A stretch of 25,927 nt of DNA, from IMG/VR virus record IMGVR_UViG_3300046778_000073, positions 1-25,927 of that record; one strand, 5' to 3'. Under the pieces are notes generated by a model. It had not been told where the DNA came from. It saw nothing but the letters and a program-made list of their open reading frames with translations, and searched no databases. The position numbers and the translations under genes are program-made. This document shows, in pieces, positions 15,587 through 25,927 of this stretch. The stretch comes from a virus. Taxonomy: Duplodnaviria > Caudoviricetes. How positions within the stretch are numbered: the stretch's first letter is position 1; each line of letters begins with the position of its first letter.

Positions 15587-18247
15587 TTAATTTATTTCGT
15601 TATATATAAAATCCCTTAATTTCCAATATTGATTACAAAAGAAATAATAATTTATTGTTCCATTCTCATATGGGTTATTTATTTGCGTATGCTCAACTAT
15701 ATTAAACATCTCATCAGTTATTGGGTAAAGCATTAAATCCATTTCAGTTAATCTAGGTGCATTAAACCCACCACTATTCGTATCAAAAATATCTTTTCCA
15801 GAACCAACAGGGTAATATACCGTATCGTATTTAGTAGCTTCAAATGTTGGTAAATACATATTACCAATAATTAAAGGGAAGAGATTACCTGTGGGTATCT
15901 TATAGAAATTTATGTCTACATTTTCCAAATACATACCCGCGCGTGATATAACACCCTCAGTATAGAATTGAAAGTAGATTAAATCCCCCTCCTGTAAATA
16001 AAATGACTCATTAATAGAAGCGAGGTAACTTAATCCATTGTATAATGATTGATTATTACTAAGTGATACCTTTAACGGATTAATTAACTCAATATTAGTA
16101 TTATTAGAGTATTTTATAATAGTAAAACAATAATTTAAATAATTAGGATATCTAATATTAACATTACCAGTTATCGTAAAATTACCTTTTATATTATAAT
16201 AACCACCCTCCTTAATTTCAAAAACACTATTAGTGAAAGCACCACCTACCGTTGGATGTGAGAGTGGACCCCAAACACCTATATTTGGATTAATATTATT
16301 AAAATTAAAATCACCCCCAGGATTTATTTGTGGGTTTCTACCAACACTTAAATTAATACTTGATGGTGTTATATTACCAATATGTCCATTAGGGTAAAGT
16401 TCAGTATTTAAATCAAGAGGATACCAAGCACTATTATTTAGAGTATCATCGTCCAATGGTAATTGATTACCAGGTAAAGCCAATCCTTTTGTAGTTAAAG
16501 TTGTGATAAGTTGTGTATCACCTGACAGTGGTTTAGTTGAATAGCAATTCGGCATTGGAGCTCCCCTACCTTTTATTAACGTATCACCATACCCACCACT
16601 TAAACCATTATTTTCAACATTTAACGCCGAATAATAACCATACTTCGTCCATTGACTAGCTATTGTATAGATATTACTTTTCCTATTTTTATAATCCCAA
16701 TTTAACTCAGCACCATTCCTATATTTCGAACCAGCATCTTCTTTTGGGTAAGGATAATAATTACTATTAATTGGGTTATAATACCCATTTGGAAATGGTG
16801 AATCTGGATAATATTGAGCATTGTAATTAATATCAAACCTATTAACTGTCGTTATTCCGGTTGATCCGTCATAACCTATTTGCCCTATAAAATCACTACC
16901 ATTATTTAAATTAAACCCTATACTTGATGCTCTTGAATATGTCTTACTATTACCCATATTAACACTAACATTATTATTAATATATATCATTAGACAATAA
17001 GGTGTTCTAGTGAAAATACCTGTCGGGTTTTTTGAAAAGTCATCGTTAGTCTTATACCAATTACCTTCTTCATCAATATTATACCTATCCCATTTACAAG
17101 GTATTGTAGCGTAAAACGTTCCATCCGAATCAACATCAGCTGAAACATCAGGGTCATTTTCATCATACCCATCAAGTAAAAAAGCTACCTTACCACCCAT
17201 CGTTTGTTTTGATCTAGTCAATGCCATATTATCGGTGGTATATGTCGGTGTAGCCGAATTAAATATATTATAGTCAGAGTAAAATGTTCCAATGATGTAA
17301 TTACATGGTTGGTATTTGTATTCTAACCTATAATCATACCTATTTATACCAATTTCACATTTATCAAAATCACCGAAAAATGATTTAATCTGAACATTTG
17401 TTGATCTCGATATTACAACACCGGCGGTATTATCCGCATTAATACCATCATTAGGTATTTGTTTTTGGATTACAGATATATTATCACCATTCTGATTTTT
17501 TAATGTTTTACCACCACCAAAATTAGTTGACGTAGCTCCACTTATAATTATTACCTCCCTACCACTCTCATCCAATCCTGTTATATTACCTAACGATACT
17601 GATTGACCGGTGGTATTACCTGTAACAGAATTCCCACCATTAGCATTTATTGGAGTTCCATTTATTTTCGAATCCTTTTTAAAATTCTTCTTATCTTTAT
17701 TACCTGTAGCCAACTGCTGAACTGGTGTAGTACTTAACGAACCAGCGTCAGTACTATCAAAATTCATTAATAAACTACCCCTACCTAATGGAATACCTAA
17801 AATAGTGTAATCTCCGTTTTGATTAGTTGATGTTACAAATTTAAAATATTTTTTATACACATACTCTAAGGCTGAATTAGCCATTACTTCATCTTCACTT
17901 GGAAAACCACCGATAGGGTAATGATTTTTATTTACCTTATATTTTGGTAATAACGGATATTTATTACCCATAATACCATTATATATAGAGCTAATTATTA
18001 TATTATTTTTATCGGTATCATCTAATGGTTGTATATAACCAACTTTAACATTTTCCATTGGAAAACTATTACTATCTACAATTCTACCTACAATAATACC
18101 CCAATCACCACAAGGGTTAGGGTACGCATCAGTTCCATATATACTTAAAGTTAATATATCAAGAACATCAAAATTTTGCTCAATATTAACCTTTAAATAT
18201 TGATTTTTATCTGGAAGTATTTTAGTCTTAATCCTATATTTATTCAT
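15587..18247 (-). CDS. Large virion/baseplate protein (886 aa) with a carboxypeptidase-regulatory-like N-domain and a C1q-like segment
   Basis: GIIVGRIVDSNSFPMENVKV...TNQNGDYTILGIPLG (prealbumin-like fold) and FEIKEGGYYNI...FYLQEGDLIYF (C1q-like). Confidence 0.6.
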   Translation of the reverse strand: MNKYRIKTKILPDKNQYLKVNIEQNFDVLDILTLSIYGTDAYPNPCGDWGIIVGRIVDSNSFPMENVKVGYIQPLDDTDKNNIIISSIYNGIMGNKYPLLPKYKVNKNHYPIGGFPSEDEVMANSALEYVYKKYFKFVTSTNQNGDYTILGIPLGRGSLLMNFDSTDAGSLSTTPVQQLATGNKDKKNFKKDSKINGTPINANGGNSVTGNTTGQSVSLGNITGLDESGREVIIISGATSTNFGGGKTLKNQNGDNISVIQKQIPNDGINADNTAGVVISRSTNVQIKSFFGDFDKCEIGINRYDYRLEYKYQPCNYIIGTFYSDYNIFNSATPTYTTDNMALTRSKQTMGGKVAFLLDGYDENDPDVSADVDSDGTFYATIPCKWDRYNIDEEGNWYKTNDDFSKNPTGIFTRTPYCLMIYINNNVSVNMGNSKTYSRASSIGFNLNNGSDFIGQIGYDGSTGITTVNRFDINYNAQYYPDSPFPNGYYNPINSNYYPYPKEDAGSKYRNGAELNWDYKNRKSNIYTIASQWTKYGYYSALNVENNGLSGGYGDTLIKGRGAPMPNCYSTKPLSGDTQLITTLTTKGLALPGNQLPLDDDTLNNSAWYPLDLNTELYPNGHIGNITPSSINLSVGRNPQINPGGDFNFNNINPNIGVWGPLSHPTVGGAFTNSVFEIKEGGYYNIKGNFTITGNVNIRYPNYLNYCFTIIKYSNNTNIELINPLKVSLSNNQSLYNGLSYLASINESFYLQEGDLIYFQFYTEGVISRAGMYLENVDINFYKIPTGNLFPLIIGNMYLPTFEATKYDTVYYPVGSGKDIFDTNSGGFNAPRLTEMDLMLYPITDEMFNIVEHTQINNPYENGTINYYFFCNQYWKLRDFIYNEIN

Positions 18248-18309
18248 TTATATTTATAAATATAAATAAATGATTTTCAAAAAATATAAACAAAAGTATT
18301 TATTTAAAT
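18248..18309. promoter_or_regulatory. Divergent late-promoter region
   Basis: Minus-strand TATTTATA at 18255-18262 and 18261-18268 upstream of ATG 18247. Plus-strand TATTTATT at 18297-18304, 5 nt before ATG 18310. Confidence 0.5.
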
Positions 18310-20489: not shown

Positions 20490-21659
20490 CTAATACAACG
20501 TTATAGTCGCATCGTTTATCTCCTCTTCCGTTACTTTAGATAATAACCTTAAAGCAACTCTTTGGGTTGCTTTAGAGATACGATAACCTTTTTTAGTGTA
20601 TTTAACAATCCTATCTATTAAAGACGCTGGAGCCCTTAATTTTTCATTTATAGTAATTTTTTTAGATTTAGCATCCCTAAAAAATTTATCATTGCAAATT
20701 AATTTCCTATCCCTTAAATCCACACCACACATTACACAAGTAAAATCAAATTGATTAATTATAGTATCGATATTACCAAGACTATATTTGGATGGATTAA
20801 TGAATTGAAATTTATGTGTTGATTTAACCGTAAACGTCTTAGCATTACTGGTATTATACCTACATATTAAATCACTACTAAAAATTCCCCCATCCCTTTG
20901 TTTTTCATATAATATATCCATTTCATTAGTTGCCTTATCATAATCACCCTTATTTGAAAACCATATATCGTAATCCACTATTTGCTCATTCAATATAATT
21001 GACGTTAACGCCCCACCAGCAATTATCGCATTATTATTTATTAATATTTTTAACACATCATGGTCAATTCCCTCAACTAATTTTGATATTATCGATGAGT
21101 TTTCAGATTCTAAAAATACATTAATATTCAAATTAATTAAGTCAAATATGTTTGATGTGTAACTTATATCCGATCTATCCCAAACAACCACACACCTATC
21201 ATTCATAATTTGAACAATAAATTTATTAAATTGACTATTATAAGGTAAATTCTTAGAAATTACTAAGTAAAACATATTCCCTTCGTTAATATACCTATCC
21301 CACACACTACTGTCATCAGAAGCTATACACCATTTACTACCCTTACCGTATAATTTCATAGCGTTTACACTATAAATTCTTTTTACGATAAAATCTTCGT
21401 TTTCGTAAATTAAAGCTGAACCACTATTTTTAATAATTTCTTCAGCCTCAGATTCGGATTCTAAACTATCCACATATGATACAAAATGATCTACGGATTT
21501 AAATTTAAAAATATCTCGATATTCAATAGGTATTTTATCATTTAATCTTTTATGTTTATTACACATAAAAACAAGTGAAGGGTGTGTGATATCACCACCA
21601 TTAATAGTTTTTAACCATTTTTTATATTTTGAATCAATTTCTAATGTAAGTATATCCAT
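20490..21659 (-). CDS. Two-domain protein: phage YGxxxKWC domain fused to a Pol-beta-superfamily nucleotidyltransferase (CCA/poly(A)-polymerase-like head)
   Basis: N-half AMKLYGKGSKWCIAS...FYLVISK. C-half AIIAGGALTS...DYDIWF, FDFTCVM and RIVKYTKKGY. Confidence 0.7.
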   Translation of the reverse strand: MDILTLEIDSKYKKWLKTINGGDITHPSLVFMCNKHKRLNDKIPIEYRDIFKFKSVDHFVSYVDSLESESEAEEIIKNSGSALIYENEDFIVKRIYSVNAMKLYGKGSKWCIASDDSSVWDRYINEGNMFYLVISKNLPYNSQFNKFIVQIMNDRCVVVWDRSDISYTSNIFDLINLNINVFLESENSSIISKLVEGIDHDVLKILINNNAIIAGGALTSIILNEQIVDYDIWFSNKGDYDKATNEMDILYEKQRDGGIFSSDLICRYNTSNAKTFTVKSTHKFQFINPSKYSLGNIDTIINQFDFTCVMCGVDLRDRKLICNDKFFRDAKSKKITINEKLRAPASLIDRIVKYTKKGYRISKATQRVALRLLSKVTEEEINDATITLY

Positions 21660-21835: not shown

Positions 21836-21897
21836 ATAATAGGGAAATTATTTAAAGAAAACAAATTTGGTAGTTACAAATTAACATATTATATTTG
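21836..21897. promoter_or_regulatory. Back-to-back divergent host-type promoters; the plus-strand one matches the Bacteroidota -33/-7 consensus
   Basis: Plus: TTTG (21866-21869)-N20-TATATTTG (21890-21897). Minus: TTGTTT-N17-TATTAT (21864 to 21836). Confidence 0.6.
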
Positions 21898-21900
21898 TAT

Positions 21901-22311
21901 ATGATTAATGAATTAAAAGACAACGATATTAAAATTTTCATTTATGCGGGTAACGCCACTTTCACAATTACCAACACCAAAACAGGTAATCGTTTTACAT
22001 ATAAAGTCCGCAAATCAAAGGATAATGATATTTATTTCGTATCGGTTTTAACGGGTTCCGATAATACAAATGATTATTCATATATCGGATTCATTAAAAA
22101 CGAATTATTTAAAACAAGTAAGAAATCAAAAGTCACTTCGGATTCACCATCCTTTAAAGTCTTTAATTGGTTTATGATTAATATCAATAAAATACCATCA
22201 ATTGTTCAAGTTTTACATGAAGGAAGTTGTGGTAGATGTGGTAGAAAACTTACAACACCTGAATCAATTGAGAGGGGTATTGGTCCAGAATGTGTTAGAA
22301 TAATGAGATAA
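21901..22311 (+). CDS. DUF6011-like zinc-binding protein
   Basis: C-terminal HEGSCGRCGRKLTTPESIERGIGPEC. ATG 21901 is preferred over the track's TTG 21895. Confidence 0.75.
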   Translation: MINELKDNDIKIFIYAGNATFTITNTKTGNRFTYKVRKSKDNDIYFVSVLTGSDNTNDYSYIGFIKNELFKTSKKSKVTSDSPSFKVFNWFMININKIPSIVQVLHEGSCGRCGRKLTTPESIERGIGPECVRIMR

Positions 22312-22344
22312 AAAAAAAGGGATAATTTCTTATCCCTTTTTTTT
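22311..22344. terminator. Bidirectional rho-independent terminator
   Basis: Perfect 15-bp inverted repeat AAAAAAAAGGGATAA-TTTC-TTATCCCTTTTTTTT between convergent genes. Confidence 0.9.
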
Positions 22345-22346
22345 AT

Positions 22347-23357
22347 TTAAGGTGTTATTGAAGATCTCATAGCTTCTAATATTTCAGGACTTATCTCACA
22401 ACTACCAGAACTACACGCTTGAGCTCCCATAGTGTCCATATTAACATATTCAGGTTGTTTAATCGCCACATTAAAATCAAAATCTCTTTGTTTTAATTCA
22501 CGATTAATTCTAACCCATTTATGGTATAAATGTAAGTCTTTAATACATAGTATTGTTTCTTTAATATCACCCTTAAAGAATCTTTTAGCGAATTGTTTAG
22601 CTCTCCTAATCCAATCTTTCTTGATTAGGGCTTCAACTCTAGTTCCTTGTAATTTTAAATCCCTTTTATTGACATAATCACAAGCCTCCCATAAATTACC
22701 ATCGAAAGCGTGTAATCCATCAACAATTAAACCTGACGCAAATAATGACGCATCACCATACTTTTCAAATAACTCTTCAGATGATAATATAGATGTAAAT
22801 GGTGCTTGATTATAATCCTTATCCCCACTTAAAGGTAAAAAAGATACTGCTGCAAAGTCAAATCTATTTTCAAATAAATATTTCTCCACCTCATCATAAT
22901 CACCATAATCCAATTCGACAGTATTTGATACCGAATGTCTTAAAAAAGGTTTAACATTTCTTTCGTGGTTTGTCCCATATTCAATCCAATTATTTTGTAA
23001 TGTCTTAACCACCTCTAATTGCTTTAACCCAATCAAATCCTTTTTAAATTTAGCGTTTTTATTCGCCACAACAGGGATAAATGCAACATAATCTGTTTTA
23101 TTAGAACTCCAAACACTTTCCTCAATAAGATATGGGTGCTCATCTATGAGATATTTACCAATACCAGAAACCTTATTTATTTGCATACATCGAAAATATC
23201 TTGGTGAATGATCCCCATGACAACCACTAGGTGATTTAAGTATAACTGAATTATGTGATACCACACCATTAGATAATTGATATGAGTGTGTATTCTTCAC
23301 CTCTATATCACCTGTATGGAAATTATTTTTATTTAATATTATTTTTTTTATTTTCAT
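22347..23357 (-). CDS. nrdJ: Class II ribonucleotide reductase, C-terminal fragment, preceded by the split-intein C-part
   Basis: After IntC the extein reads SVILKSPSGCHGDHSPRYFR...HSVSNTV...VSFLP...YNQAPF and ends in the redox CxxxxC tail ACSSGSCEI. Confidence 0.9.
   Translation of the reverse strand: MKIKKIILNKNNFHTGDIEVKNTHSYQLSNGVVSHNSVILKSPSGCHGDHSPRYFRCMQINKVSGIGKYLIDEHPYLIEESVWSSNKTDYVAFIPVVANKNAKFKKDLIGLKQLEVVKTLQNNWIEYGTNHERNVKPFLRHSVSNTVELDYGDYDEVEKYLFENRFDFAAVSFLPLSGDKDYNQAPFTSILSSEELFEKYGDASLFASGLIVDGLHAFDGNLWEACDYVNKRDLKLQGTRVEALIKKDWIRRAKQFAKRFFKGDIKETILCIKDLHLYHKWVRINRELKQRDFDFNVAIKQPEYVNMDTMGAQACSSGSCEISPEILEAMRSSITP
23250..23357 (-). mobile_element. Split intein C-fragment (IntC, 36 aa)
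   Basis: MKIKKIILNKNNFHTGDIEVKNTHSYQLSNGVVSHN|S: block F (GDIEV..H.Y), block G terminal His-Asn, Ser at +1. Confidence 0.92.
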
Positions 23358-23362
23358 TTTTT

Positions 23363-24199
23363 TTATTTTCTTTTTATTCTAATTATTTGACCTCTACCTT
23401 TACTATACTGTGGATTTTGTAGTATAAAATCATTAAAAGATAATACTTTCATCTGATTAGGTGTATATTTATATAATTTAACCCCGTCATTATACCATTT
23501 AGCACCCTTATTTTTAATACCACCCCTTTTACCCCTTTCACTTTGCTTTTTTCTCATTTCCTCATCACTTATTCCATTCTTATCGGCATAGTGTTTCGAG
23601 AAAAGACCATGATCCCCACCTTTTTTACATATTTCATACCTTAATAATGGATCATAATACGCACTACTTTGTTTATTTCTCAATGTTTCATGCATTTTTC
23701 GCCTAACTTCTTCACTATACATACCAGTTCCGTTCAATTTATTAACTATTTTAGCCGCCTTACCACCTTTACTACAAACATCCAATTTTTCATGTTCAGT
23801 TAATTTATAAAACCCTAATTTATTGGTGTAAGATAACATTCCATGAAATCTCCTCACCTTAAACATTTTCTCTTTTTCTAATTCATAATCATTAACATTC
23901 TCACTTACGAAATTATAATGTAAATTCAAATAATCTTTCCTATGTACAGCAATATTTAATAATTTTCTTTCATATCGTAAGGTTTCAAACTCACTATCAA
24001 AAATCTTCAATATTTTATATTCAAAATCATCTTTACCATACACATCAATAAATTTTTTTACTAAACTAGATGATGTAAAATAAGTAACCCAAAAATTTTT
24101 AGGGTCAGACTTTTTAGAGTATTTCGCTCCGATATATTTCAATCCTGTTGTTATGTTTTTAATAAAATAAACATAAGGTATTCTGTCATCTTTTTTCAT
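23363..24199 (-). CDS. Free-standing GIY-YIG homing endonuclease (Seg-like) with NUMOD3-like DNA-binding repeats
   Basis: PYVYFIKNITTGLKYIG, YFTSS, conserved E (LRYERKLL) and YLN. C-terminal SEEVRRKMHE and SDEEMRKKQSE repeats plus KWYNDG. Confidence 0.85.
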   Translation of the reverse strand: MKKDDRIPYVYFIKNITTGLKYIGAKYSKKSDPKNFWVTYFTSSSLVKKFIDVYGKDDFEYKILKIFDSEFETLRYERKLLNIAVHRKDYLNLHYNFVSENVNDYELEKEKMFKVRRFHGMLSYTNKLGFYKLTEHEKLDVCSKGGKAAKIVNKLNGTGMYSEEVRRKMHETLRNKQSSAYYDPLLRYEICKKGGDHGLFSKHYADKNGISDEEMRKKQSERGKRGGIKNKGAKWYNDGVKLYKYTPNQMKVLSFNDFILQNPQYSKGRGQIIRIKRK

Positions 24200-24200
24200 A

Positions 24201-24240
24201 TTTGTTAAACCATTTTAATATAAATACATGGTTTAACAAA
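24201..24240 (-). promoter_or_regulatory. 13-bp hairpin abutting the endonuclease start codon, with TATTTATA in the loop
   Basis: TTTGTTAAACCAT (24201-24213) and ATGGTTTAACAAA (24228-24240) are a perfect inverted repeat. The 14-nt loop contains minus-strand TATTTATA (24219-24226). Confidence 0.75.
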
Positions 24241-24250
24241 AAATGATTAT

Positions 24251-25927
24251 TTAATATGAAATAATTTCATCACCATCTAATAATTCATCAACTTTCTTCC
24301 ACCCATTAATAGTTTTTAACTTATGATTACCGGTGAATTTATATATACTACCATCCTCAAATTCAATATCATATACTGGGGTATTACCATTCATATATAA
24401 TGCAGTTATATCTTGTAACTCATTATTTTCGTCAAAAACTTTTAATAAGTTTTTAGGTTTGGCAAAAGTATCATAAATTAAATTGTCAATAATAATCTCT
24501 TCACCCATACAATAATTAAAAACCTCATTTAATGTCATATCACCTAATTCAGTTTTTATTTTAGTGTCAAATGTCGTGCATGAATTTCCTGATGGTTTGC
24601 AGGTTGTGGCCCTAGACGCTGGGTTAATTTCTATAATACTGGCAAGTTCTCTATTTACCTCTTTTATAATTTCAGCACCTTTTCTTTGTATATCAGGATT
24701 CATCATAATATGGGGATTTGACATCCAACCTGTGAATGAACAACCTAATAACGCTTCACGCTCAAATAATTCTCTAGTTGTCTTATTAACGTATTTAAAA
24801 TTAGTATATCCGGCTTGTAACGTACCTAGTATTGATAATGAACGACAAGCCTCATAAAATTTTTCTTCCGTATTACAAGCACTACCATTACCTTCTGTTA
24901 AATTACATCCCTGCCAACCTGTTCTACCATCTTCCAACATAGGGAAAAATCGAATCTCAACACATGGGTTACTAACCTCATCATAATCACTTACAAAAAG
25001 AAATCCTGGTTCACCATACTCCTTAATTTTAGAAAATACATTATTAAAATCACTATCACTTATTTCATCTCTCTTCAAAACAACAGAATTATTAGACCTA
25101 GCTCTTTGTGGATTATCGTAATACCAATTACCAATTTTAGCGTTCATCATTTCATCGTCATCATAACTAAAAAAGCAAATTGTCGCACTCCTTCGTACCC
25201 CTCCTGACAATACGGCATCTGCCATATGCATAACAAAATCATACGCAGTTATACTTTTAATTCTAAACCCACCATTATTTATTAACTTCTCTAATAGTTC
25301 CTCACATTTTAATAATGATTTTCTTAAACCCTCAGGTCCTGGAGCTTTAAAACCACCGGAAATCATAGCACCCTCAGGTCTTATTAAACTTAAATCAAAT
25401 CTTATTTCATATCCTTCATACTCAGGAAATGACGATTCACCCTCATCACTCACATATGATGATATTAAAATACCAAAAGCATCTGACCACCCTTCAATAC
25501 TATCAGGAACAATAAATGTCTTAACACCTTTTATTCTTTTACCGATATTAGGTAATTTATCAATGTGTCGTTTTTGAACAGAAAATCCTAACCCACAACC
25601 ATTTAATAAAAAAAACATTACTTCCTGAAATGCACTTATTTTATCTAAATAACCACCAACACAATTGTACATCTTAGTCTCATGCTTTAAAATAGGATCA
25701 CCACCAAACTGTAACGCCCTTTGTGATCCTAATACCAATTTATTTTTATAAGCGCTAGTTGCCTCATTAAATAATTCCATAAATCTCGGATTACTTAAAT
25801 ATTTAGAATATTTTGTTTTATGCATATCCATCACCCTATCAACCGATTCATCCCAAGTCTCAGTCCTATTCTCATCGTCAATCCATCTCGAATAATCTAA
25901 ATAATATTTTAAATCACTCGCCAATTG
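24251..25927 (-). CDS. nrdJ: Class II (adenosylcobalamin-dependent, RTPR-type) ribonucleotide reductase, N-terminal fragment plus IntN; 5' end probably beyond the window
   Basis: RTETWDESVDRV, MYNC, GGVRRSA, SNPCVEI (thiyl-radical Cys), GCNLTE and TTCKPSGN. The frame is open to the window edge, so the track's TTG start is probably not the true start. Confidence 0.92.
   Translation of the reverse strand, partial: QLASDLKYYLDYSRWIDDENRTETWDESVDRVMDMHKTKYSKYLSNPRFMELFNEATSAYKNKLVLGSQRALQFGGDPILKHETKMYNCVGGYLDKISAFQEVMFFLLNGCGLGFSVQKRHIDKLPNIGKRIKGVKTFIVPDSIEGWSDAFGILISSYVSDEGESSFPEYEGYEIRFDLSLIRPEGAMISGGFKAPGPEGLRKSLLKCEELLEKLINNGGFRIKSITAYDFVMHMADAVLSGGVRRSATICFFSYDDDEMMNAKIGNWYYDNPQRARSNNSVVLKRDEISDSDFNNVFSKIKEYGEPGFLFVSDYDEVSNPCVEIRFFPMLEDGRTGWQGCNLTEGNGSACNTEEKFYEACRSLSILGTLQAGYTNFKYVNKTTRELFEREALLGCSFTGWMSNPHIMMNPDIQRKGAEIIKEVNRELASIIEINPASRATTCKPSGNSCTTFDTKIKTELGDMTLNEVFNYCMGEEIIIDNLIYDTFAKPKNLLKVFDENNELQDITALYMNGNTPVYDIEFEDGSIYKFTGNHKLKTINGWKKVDELLDGDEIISY
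24254..24580 (-). mobile_element. Split intein N-fragment (IntN, 109 aa)
   Basis: Starts at Cys1 (KPSGNS|CTTFDTKIKT), has block B TxxH (KFTGNHKL), and ends GWKKVDELLDGDEIISY-stop with no endonuclease domain. Confidence 0.92.

Follow-up and report, generated by a model that had tools for sequence, protein, structure and literature searches.

The split nrdJ locus

The viral contig IMGVR_UViG_3300046778_000073 (IMG/VR; positions 1 to 25,927 of the record, the whole of which is called the window here) carries at one end a fractured gene for a class II ribonucleotide reductase (RNR), nrdJ. The gene's N-terminal part (nrdJ-N) closes with the N-terminal half of a split intein (IntN), the C-terminal part (nrdJ-C) opens with the C-terminal half (IntC), and a free-standing GIY-YIG gene lies between them. 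The three open reading frames (ORFs) share one strand and are separated by spacers of 51 nt and 5 nt, respectively (Table 1; a slash within a motif marks a splice junction). All details of this anatomy given in an initial annotation of the window (three minus-strand ORFs, splice-junction residues, frames, the 837-bp gene) proved correct; what it had overlooked is the hairpin just upstream of the endonuclease gene. Baseplate wedge genes and a RuvC-like resolvase identify the whole 25.9-kb contig as tailed-phage DNA.

Table 1. Features of the fractured nrdJ locus and its downstream border in the window.
Feature	Position	Strand	Remarks
nrdJ-N ORF	24251-25927	minus	runs off the contig end; ends TTCKPSGNS/C + 109-aa IntN + TAA
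nrdJ N-extein	24581-25927	minus	class II RNR of the monomeric, RTPR-like type; truncated 5' by the contig end; ends KPSGNS
IntN	24251-24580	minus	109 aa + TAA, coding part 24254-24580; Cys1, block B TGNH; net charge -11
Hairpin	24201-24240	minus	perfect 13-bp stem; ends 1 nt before the GIY-YIG ATG; loop with TATTTATA (24219-24226)
GIY-YIG gene	23363-24199	minus	free-standing, SegE-type, putative homing endonuclease; 278 aa, 837 bp
nrdJ-C ORF	22347-23357	minus	M-IntC ending SHN, then SVILKSPSG
IntC	23250-23357	minus	36 aa with a Met of its own; Asp and His of block F; His-Asn at the end; net charge +3
nrdJ C-extein	22347-23249	minus	Ser+1 (SVILKSPSG); C-terminal CSSGSC at 22398-22415
Hairpin between converging genes	22310-22344		A9-GGGATAA / TTATCCC-T8

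The ORFs themselves support the reading of the locus as a class II RNR gene that is fractured, bears a naturally split intein and encloses a GIY-YIG gene, as do the similarity of nrdJ-N to the RTPR of L. leichmannii (1L1L, E 1.3e-18) and the Pfam, PHROG and TIGR01443 matches. NPCxE, the resolving cysteines and a C-terminal CxxxxC likewise indicate the monomeric RTPR type. The TIGR02505 match of the N-extein (E 1e-38) stayed below the cut-off, as did that of a relative devoid of the intein. As the initial annotation had stated, the catalytic motif and the cysteine tail reside on different chains, NPCVEI being intact on the N chain (24953-24970) and CSSGSC lying on the C chain. Relatives begin with MSKNGLQLASDL; hence the window nrdJ-N lacks about six 5' codons. 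The cassette measures 1331 nt (mod 3 = 2), and therefore the frames of nrdJ-N and nrdJ-C differ. As both stop codons are TAA and the frames differ, joining of the halves by stop-codon recoding was ruled out.

Joining by RNA splicing or ribosomal bypassing, or an apparent split caused by an assembly error, can be practically discounted. Among the contigs listed for sequencing run X1, from which the window may stem, none bridges 24216-24225; they end at 24215 and resume at 24226, within the hairpin. The runs listed for the window include no RNA run. Against these explanations, 11 further distinct loci show this layout, the frames differ and the stops are TAA. An assembly artefact is excluded because these 11 loci, on other contigs, are split at the same codon. 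An Rfam scan revealed no intron family, its five weak matches all falling on the hairpin at 22310-22344. A contig of run X6 represents an empty allele, in which 23240 is joined to 24645 via 73 letters.

Related inteins were collected by profile scans, which gave 98 loci with both intein halves and 56 distinct ones after removal of duplicates; this clade size is a lower bound. Not counted among the 56 were loci with an IntN score below 60, partial profile matches, non-RNR hosts and loci whose fetched flank contained no IntC (L102, L130 and L170, for example). L183 (frameshifted-looking near the site), L194 (misparsed, gap -23) and the near copies L123 and L150 were kept. A scan of GTDB returned one locus, whose contig was present in the metagenome scan too. 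A single-sequence GIY-YIG scan of viral contigs gave no match, whereas an alignment-based scan did.

The window and all 56 distinct clade inteins possess the residues of class 1 split inteins (Cys1, TxxH, Asp of block F, His-Asn and a Ser/Thr+1 nucleophile), and the window IntC matches TIGR01443 above the cut-off. IntN is net negative in 52 of the 52 split members, IntC positive in 19. L099, a natural contiguous relative sharing 48% identity with the window IntN, is predicted to adopt a Hint fold (predicted local distance difference test 94; template modelling (TM) score 0.78 to Npu DnaE). Between the window and the occupied locus L022, the ratio of non-synonymous (dN) to synonymous (dS) substitution amounts to approximately 0.16 for IntN, 0.30 for IntC and 0.41 for the GIY-YIG gene, and dN is well below dS for all three in every pair with estimable dS (six compared), which shows purifying selection on both intein halves and the endonuclease. 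The window halves likely trans-splice NrdJ: the acidic IntN and the basic IntC would associate and, by means of Cys1, TGNH, His-Asn and Ser+1, yield a full-length B12-dependent reductase.

NrdJ is broken within the KPSGT loop (1L1L residues 548-554), which we take to be the substrate-phosphate-binding loop (PSGT/PSET), where persisting intein tails would likely block the active site. This, along with the invariance of the splicing residues over 56 inteins and a +1 residue that is always Ser or Thr, makes it very improbable that the two chains merely assemble non-covalently, with the intein pieces as interaction tails. A precedent for the latter is nrdA of phage Aeh1, which like the window gene is an RNR gene fragmented by a free-standing endonuclease gene, mobE, and whose products NrdA-a/b assemble through tails (Crona et al. 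2010, PMC3045599). In contrast to the window enzyme, however, that RNR is of class Ia and, as described there, has no intein.

The 837-bp ORF matches Pfam SegE_GIY-YIG (E 2.7e-8, above the cut-off) and the homing endonuclease family PHROG 314 (E 1.4e-15). YVY..YIG, Glu77 and Asn92/96 are invariant in four aligned GIY-YIG proteins, and Lys26 occupies the position of the canonical catalytic Arg known from I-TevI; a Lys/Arg two residues past YIG may replace that Arg. The enzyme likely cuts empty nrdJ alleles.

The hairpin lies in the 5' untranslated region (UTR) of the endonuclease gene, and TATTTATA in its loop is a candidate late-promoter motif. The hairpin has a z-score of -3.2, compared with -5.3 in L022 and -4.6 in L082. 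Stems of at least 9 bp follow IntN in 22 of 41 loci with an endonuclease and in 1 of 11 without (p 0.014). TATTTAT is found within 25 nt of 5 of the 20 window start codons, mostly those of structural genes (background 1.8%, AT-matched 5.3%, p 0.003); a sigma-70 promoter scan of the window stayed at chance level (26 vs 26.8). Control of fractured-gene endonucleases by a hairpin plus late promoter has been described (Dassa 2009, PMC2677866). The window arrangement agrees with it apart from the motif, and the window stem has no obvious match, by eye, to the UTR motifs in Figure S4 of that study. In read-through nrdJ transcripts the hairpin would damp translation of the endonuclease; a late transcript starting in the loop would lack the 5' arm and thus release it. 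TATTTAT(A) recurs approximately 3-10 nt upstream of structural gene starts, without Shine-Dalgarno sequence, at 207, 5981, 9688 and 18251-18268, with a back-to-back arrangement of candidate late promoters where genes diverge at 18247/18310.

Insertion site and distribution among empty alleles

The cassette is inserted after position P+4, counted from the conserved Pro of the loop, i.e., between 1L1L residues 553 and 554 (KPSGN-S/S) and 127 residues past the NPC cysteine. According to Dassa 2009 (PMC2677866), NrdA inteins lie just before the thiyl cysteine and NrdJ-1 and NrdJ-2 one residue C-terminal of the thiyl-radical site. With NPCVEI intact, the window allele is neither NrdJ-1 nor NrdJ-2, and the distinct site proposed in the initial annotation is thereby borne out. 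A contiguous RNR intein of haloarchaea is documented at TTTIAPTG/C in the supplement of Soucy et al. (2014, PMC4071816), so position P+2 of this loop (P-x-G/T) is already published; the window insertion lies two codons further on. An intein at P+4 was not found in the literature searched, a search that left InBase and subscription papers aside.

Intein-less relatives, whose existence the initial annotation had left to be checked, are abundant. Among 80 loci fetched by a search with the C half (L001-L080), 78 are empty and two carry the same split. The nearest empty ones have C-exteins of 84-87% identity, and the genes downstream, for a DUF6011 protein and a nucleotidyltransferase-like protein, recur in many of them, so they represent the orthologous locus. 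Since the empty site reads KPSGNA-SVLLK in 75 of these 78 orthologues, the insertion was precise, without indel. The window has Ser instead of the usual Ala at position -1. This Ser occurs in 5 of 11 occupied P+4 proteins from a protein search, in none of the 78 empty loci and in none of 11 other occupied loci from the profile scans. The protein search revealed NrdJ halves terminated by IntN at P+4 in 10 of 19 matches besides the window, L022 among the 10.

An exact DNA pattern independent of family assignment detected 9 occupied sites as opposed to approximately 1,100 estimated empty ones in IMG/VR, which corresponds to an occupancy of about 1%; all nine occupied contigs had previously been found as split or, in the case of L102, are cut by the contig end. 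A C-extein tree comprised 9 occupied and 33 empty alleles; removal of near-identical empty sequences had brought 66 rows down to this set, and four occupied loci lacked sufficient length. On this tree, occupancy requires 9 changes, and a single occupied clade is rejected by the approximately unbiased test (p-AU 1e-66). From the low occupancy and its scatter over the host tree, we conclude that the cassette likely spreads by homing as one unit: the endonuclease would cut empty nrdJ alleles, and the whole 1.33-kb cassette would be copied in. Over 120 nt upstream, the occupied L022 matches the empty alleles L013 and L018 at every position; downstream, 3 of the first 9 nt are mismatched. This pattern, noticed post hoc, resembles a short co-conversion tract. 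Sliding mismatch counts gave no clear tract for the window, because its nearest empty allele is too distant. In L018 (2640-4906), the empty nrdJ is itself frameshifted internally, near codon 224, which may be an assembly error.

Across 11 cassettes, intein identity is uncorrelated with extein identity (Mantel r 0.02, p 0.43) and correlates weakly with GIY-YIG identity (r 0.28, p 0.03). GIY-YIG identity tracks that of the host extein more strongly (r 0.46, p 2e-4), and the endonucleases of the window and L022 are sisters, like their hosts. The latter two relations, together with decayed cassettes (L091 is frameshifted; L092, L101 and L124 retain remnants), would fit an old, vertically inherited cassette that was lost many times and whose endonuclease no longer homes. 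We regard such a history as improbable. Precise loss would be required in about 99% of the alleles, the window endonuclease ORF is intact with dN/dS below 1, and between the window and locus L093 the intein has diverged far less (dN 0.29) than the extein (dN 0.75).

Registers of the clade and relocation of the cassette

The 56 clade inteins occupy one loop in five registers, P+1 (1), P+2 (36), P+3 (6), P+4 (12) and P+9 (1). Their hosts are RNRs of class Ia and class II, and the genes between the halves are of GIY-YIG, HNH, Vsr-like or unclassified type, i.e., at least three endonuclease families. All 12 P+4 loci are split; 11 of them carry the GIY-YIG gene of the window type (frameshifted in L091) and one, L092, a remnant gap. 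Only four clade members are contiguous (L084, L099, L122, L132), none of them at P+4. At P+9 (L166/L167, SSLVSN/STQGID) and P+1 (L189/L190, VAPN/TSSAF), the halves are separated by endonuclease-free gaps of 238-265 nt. Several NrdJ-N chains contain a second, contiguous intein at the NPC site (L022, 301-3072; L082; P0010, P0014 and P0015) and would therefore need both cis- and trans-splicing.

The history of the P+4 cassette is illuminated by L093. It is inserted at P+2 of a KPAG/T host from another nrdJ subfamily; its intein is 62% identical to that of the window, its extein 34%, and the flanks of both align gap-free. Nevertheless, both the intein tree (support 98/97) and the GIY-YIG tree (100/100) place L093 together with the P+4 set. 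Whether it is nested in this set or sister to it, at least one two-codon shift of an assembled cassette is implied, in either direction. The presence of the same intein and GIY-YIG pair at P+2 as well as at P+4 favours the relocation of a cassette that was split beforehand; a ready-made split cassette probably changed register by two codons. In KPSG-N-A-S hosts the +1 residue would be Asn at P+2 and Ala at P+3, which makes P+4 the first workable site. The cassette would have shifted between P-x-G/T and P-S-G-N-A/S, where this Ser is the first usable +1 nucleophile. Such a first-nucleophile rule fits 48 of the 56 inteins, although it is partly true by necessity.

The initial annotation had proposed that an endonuclease invaded a mini-intein at the present site. 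In this scenario, a contiguous mini-intein already present at KPSGNA/S was fractured in place by the GIY-YIG gene (step II of Dassa 2009), with splicing unchanged. Contiguous clade mini-inteins do exist, both among the four members listed above and in Campylobacter phage PC14, and the number of endonuclease families implies that invasions recur. However, the contiguous allele that had been anticipated at this site is missing from the 12 P+4 loci, and the pair is seen at P+2. Moreover, L099 looks like a product of re-fusion: at its split point it reads TTC TAT AAA GAA AAA GAT ATG (within 1000-1080). At the place where its split relatives terminate, it has a Tyr codon that a single base separates from a stop, and a Met is retained after it. 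This single locus suggests a re-fused split intein that keeps the Met of IntC. We thus consider fracture at P+4 itself rather unlikely, while an endonuclease may have invaded, and so caused the split, at an earlier time and a different site. In L108, the gap after IntN is 24 nt long and in frame, one stop codon away from an L099-like state.

Taken together, we are fairly confident of an nrdJ gene fractured by a probably homing 1.33-kb cassette, with halves that would trans-splice, an endonuclease that would be under hairpin control and a register probably changed by two codons. Several points weigh against this reading. Splicing, cleavage and expression of the window genes are predictions made from sequence, a model of IntN by itself had inteins as its top matches, though weak ones (best E 1.8e-3, TM 0.36), and the endonuclease is devoid of Arg at the canonical I-TevI position. 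A long stem is missing from L023, which has no hairpin, and from 18 other endonuclease loci. The nested and sister placements of L093 are not distinguished (p-AU 0.39 and 0.42), and the first-nucleophile rule fails in 8 of 56 inteins, including that of the window on account of its Ser at -1. The scatter over the host tree is likewise compatible with an old cassette that was lost precisely and repeatedly, and the closer coupling of GIY-YIG to extein than to intein indicates that the cassette is not a rigid unit or that composition confounds the test.

On a larger scale, it is conceivable, though we would not quite give it even odds, that one phage-borne split-intein clade colonised a single loop, shared by class I and class II RNRs, in all five registers. 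It would have moved as an IntN-hairpin-endonuclease-IntC cassette, swapped endonuclease families, shifted register to reach Ser/Thr, and reversed the cycle by decay, loss and re-fusion into mini-inteins. If this is true, fractured genes are self-propagating, retargetable elements rather than transient intermediates of gene fission.

Relation to known fractured genes

The fractured-gene layout itself is known since 2009. The gp41-1, IMPDH-1, NrdA-1 to NrdA-7 and NrdJ-1/2 loci described by Dassa 2009 (PMC2677866) show the same gene order on one strand as the window, a spacer with hairpin of 27-51 nt (51 nt in the window) and a free-standing GIY-YIG or Vsr-like middle gene (GIY-YIG in the window). 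An acidic IntN with a basic IntC is common to NrdJ-1 and the window, and endonuclease loss is a state common to that study and our clade. Differences concern the insertion site, which for the NrdA and NrdJ alleles is the NPC cysteine, and the hairpin loop motif, TATTTATA in the window as compared with the T4-type TATAAATA. The 3' end of the endonuclease gene overlaps the start of IntC in 15 of their loci, a common but not universal feature, whereas the window has a gap. Furthermore, the clade represents an intein lineage unrelated to NrdJ-1, as L099 shares 18% identity with it (8UBS) in a structural alignment.

Relative to that study, empty orthologues and host-tree scatter are added for the window cassette. 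The new elements are the P+4 allele, the evidence for spread of the cassette among empty alleles and the likely register shift of a whole cassette. The gene-fracturing model of 2009 is thereby put to a population test, with empty orthologues, occupancy of about 1%, scatter over the host tree and all states of the life cycle.

The RNR intein of haloarchaea (Soucy et al. 2014, PMC4071816) and the mini-intein in nrdA of phage PC14 (IAPTA/C...HN/T) share the loop and the P+2 register of 36 of the 56 clade members, but both are contiguous and cis-splicing and lie two codons upstream of the window site. The former is long, with an internal domain, and is compared here with the clade by its site. In PC14 (KX236333.1, 1955-3337; L274), the contiguous clade mini-intein lies at IAPTA/T in a separately encoded C-terminal nrdA piece and matches the clade profile with E 6e-28 at register P+2.

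For actinobacteriophages, a preprint describes extein switching: the homologous site offers no Ser/Thr/Cys at +1, and the intein moves into a new one (bioRxiv 10.1101/2025.01.02.630785). There a contiguous intein changes the gene, whereas here a split three-part cassette shifts codons within one loop. The window and L093, as matched cassettes two codons apart, offer a small-step case of inteins gaining new sites, with endonuclease targets that can be compared.

In a fold search, the clade shares 14-26% identity with split inteins in use. Because of this distance, the Ser/Thr at +1 and the IntC of 36 aa, it may yield orthogonal ligation tools. The system is testable, since the cultured Klebsiella phage KP13-7 (OP617745.1, 396-4350; L273) carries a clade member in an nrdA gene broken into three pieces by two split inteins. 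The first intein lies before the thiyl cysteine (NLC/C...HN/C) with a GIY-YIG-like ORF, the second, which belongs to this clade, at IMPGE/T with another endonuclease-like ORF. The pieces are mostly annotated as hypothetical proteins, and phiKp_21 matches similarly.

Downstream of nrdJ-C, the nucleotidyltransferase-like gene (PHROG 1614) at 20490-21659 (minus strand) and the DUF6011 zinc-finger gene at 21895-22311 (plus strand) are syntenic in many close relatives. The hairpin at 22310-22344 looks like a bidirectional terminator and is absent from the output of a terminator scan. More distant split inteins were detected in phage UvsX/RecA-like genes (YNVIG/C...HN/S or T) at L086-L088 and at metagenome loci such as L200, L207 and L219-L223, with an ORF or a gap between the halves; L231 is contiguous.

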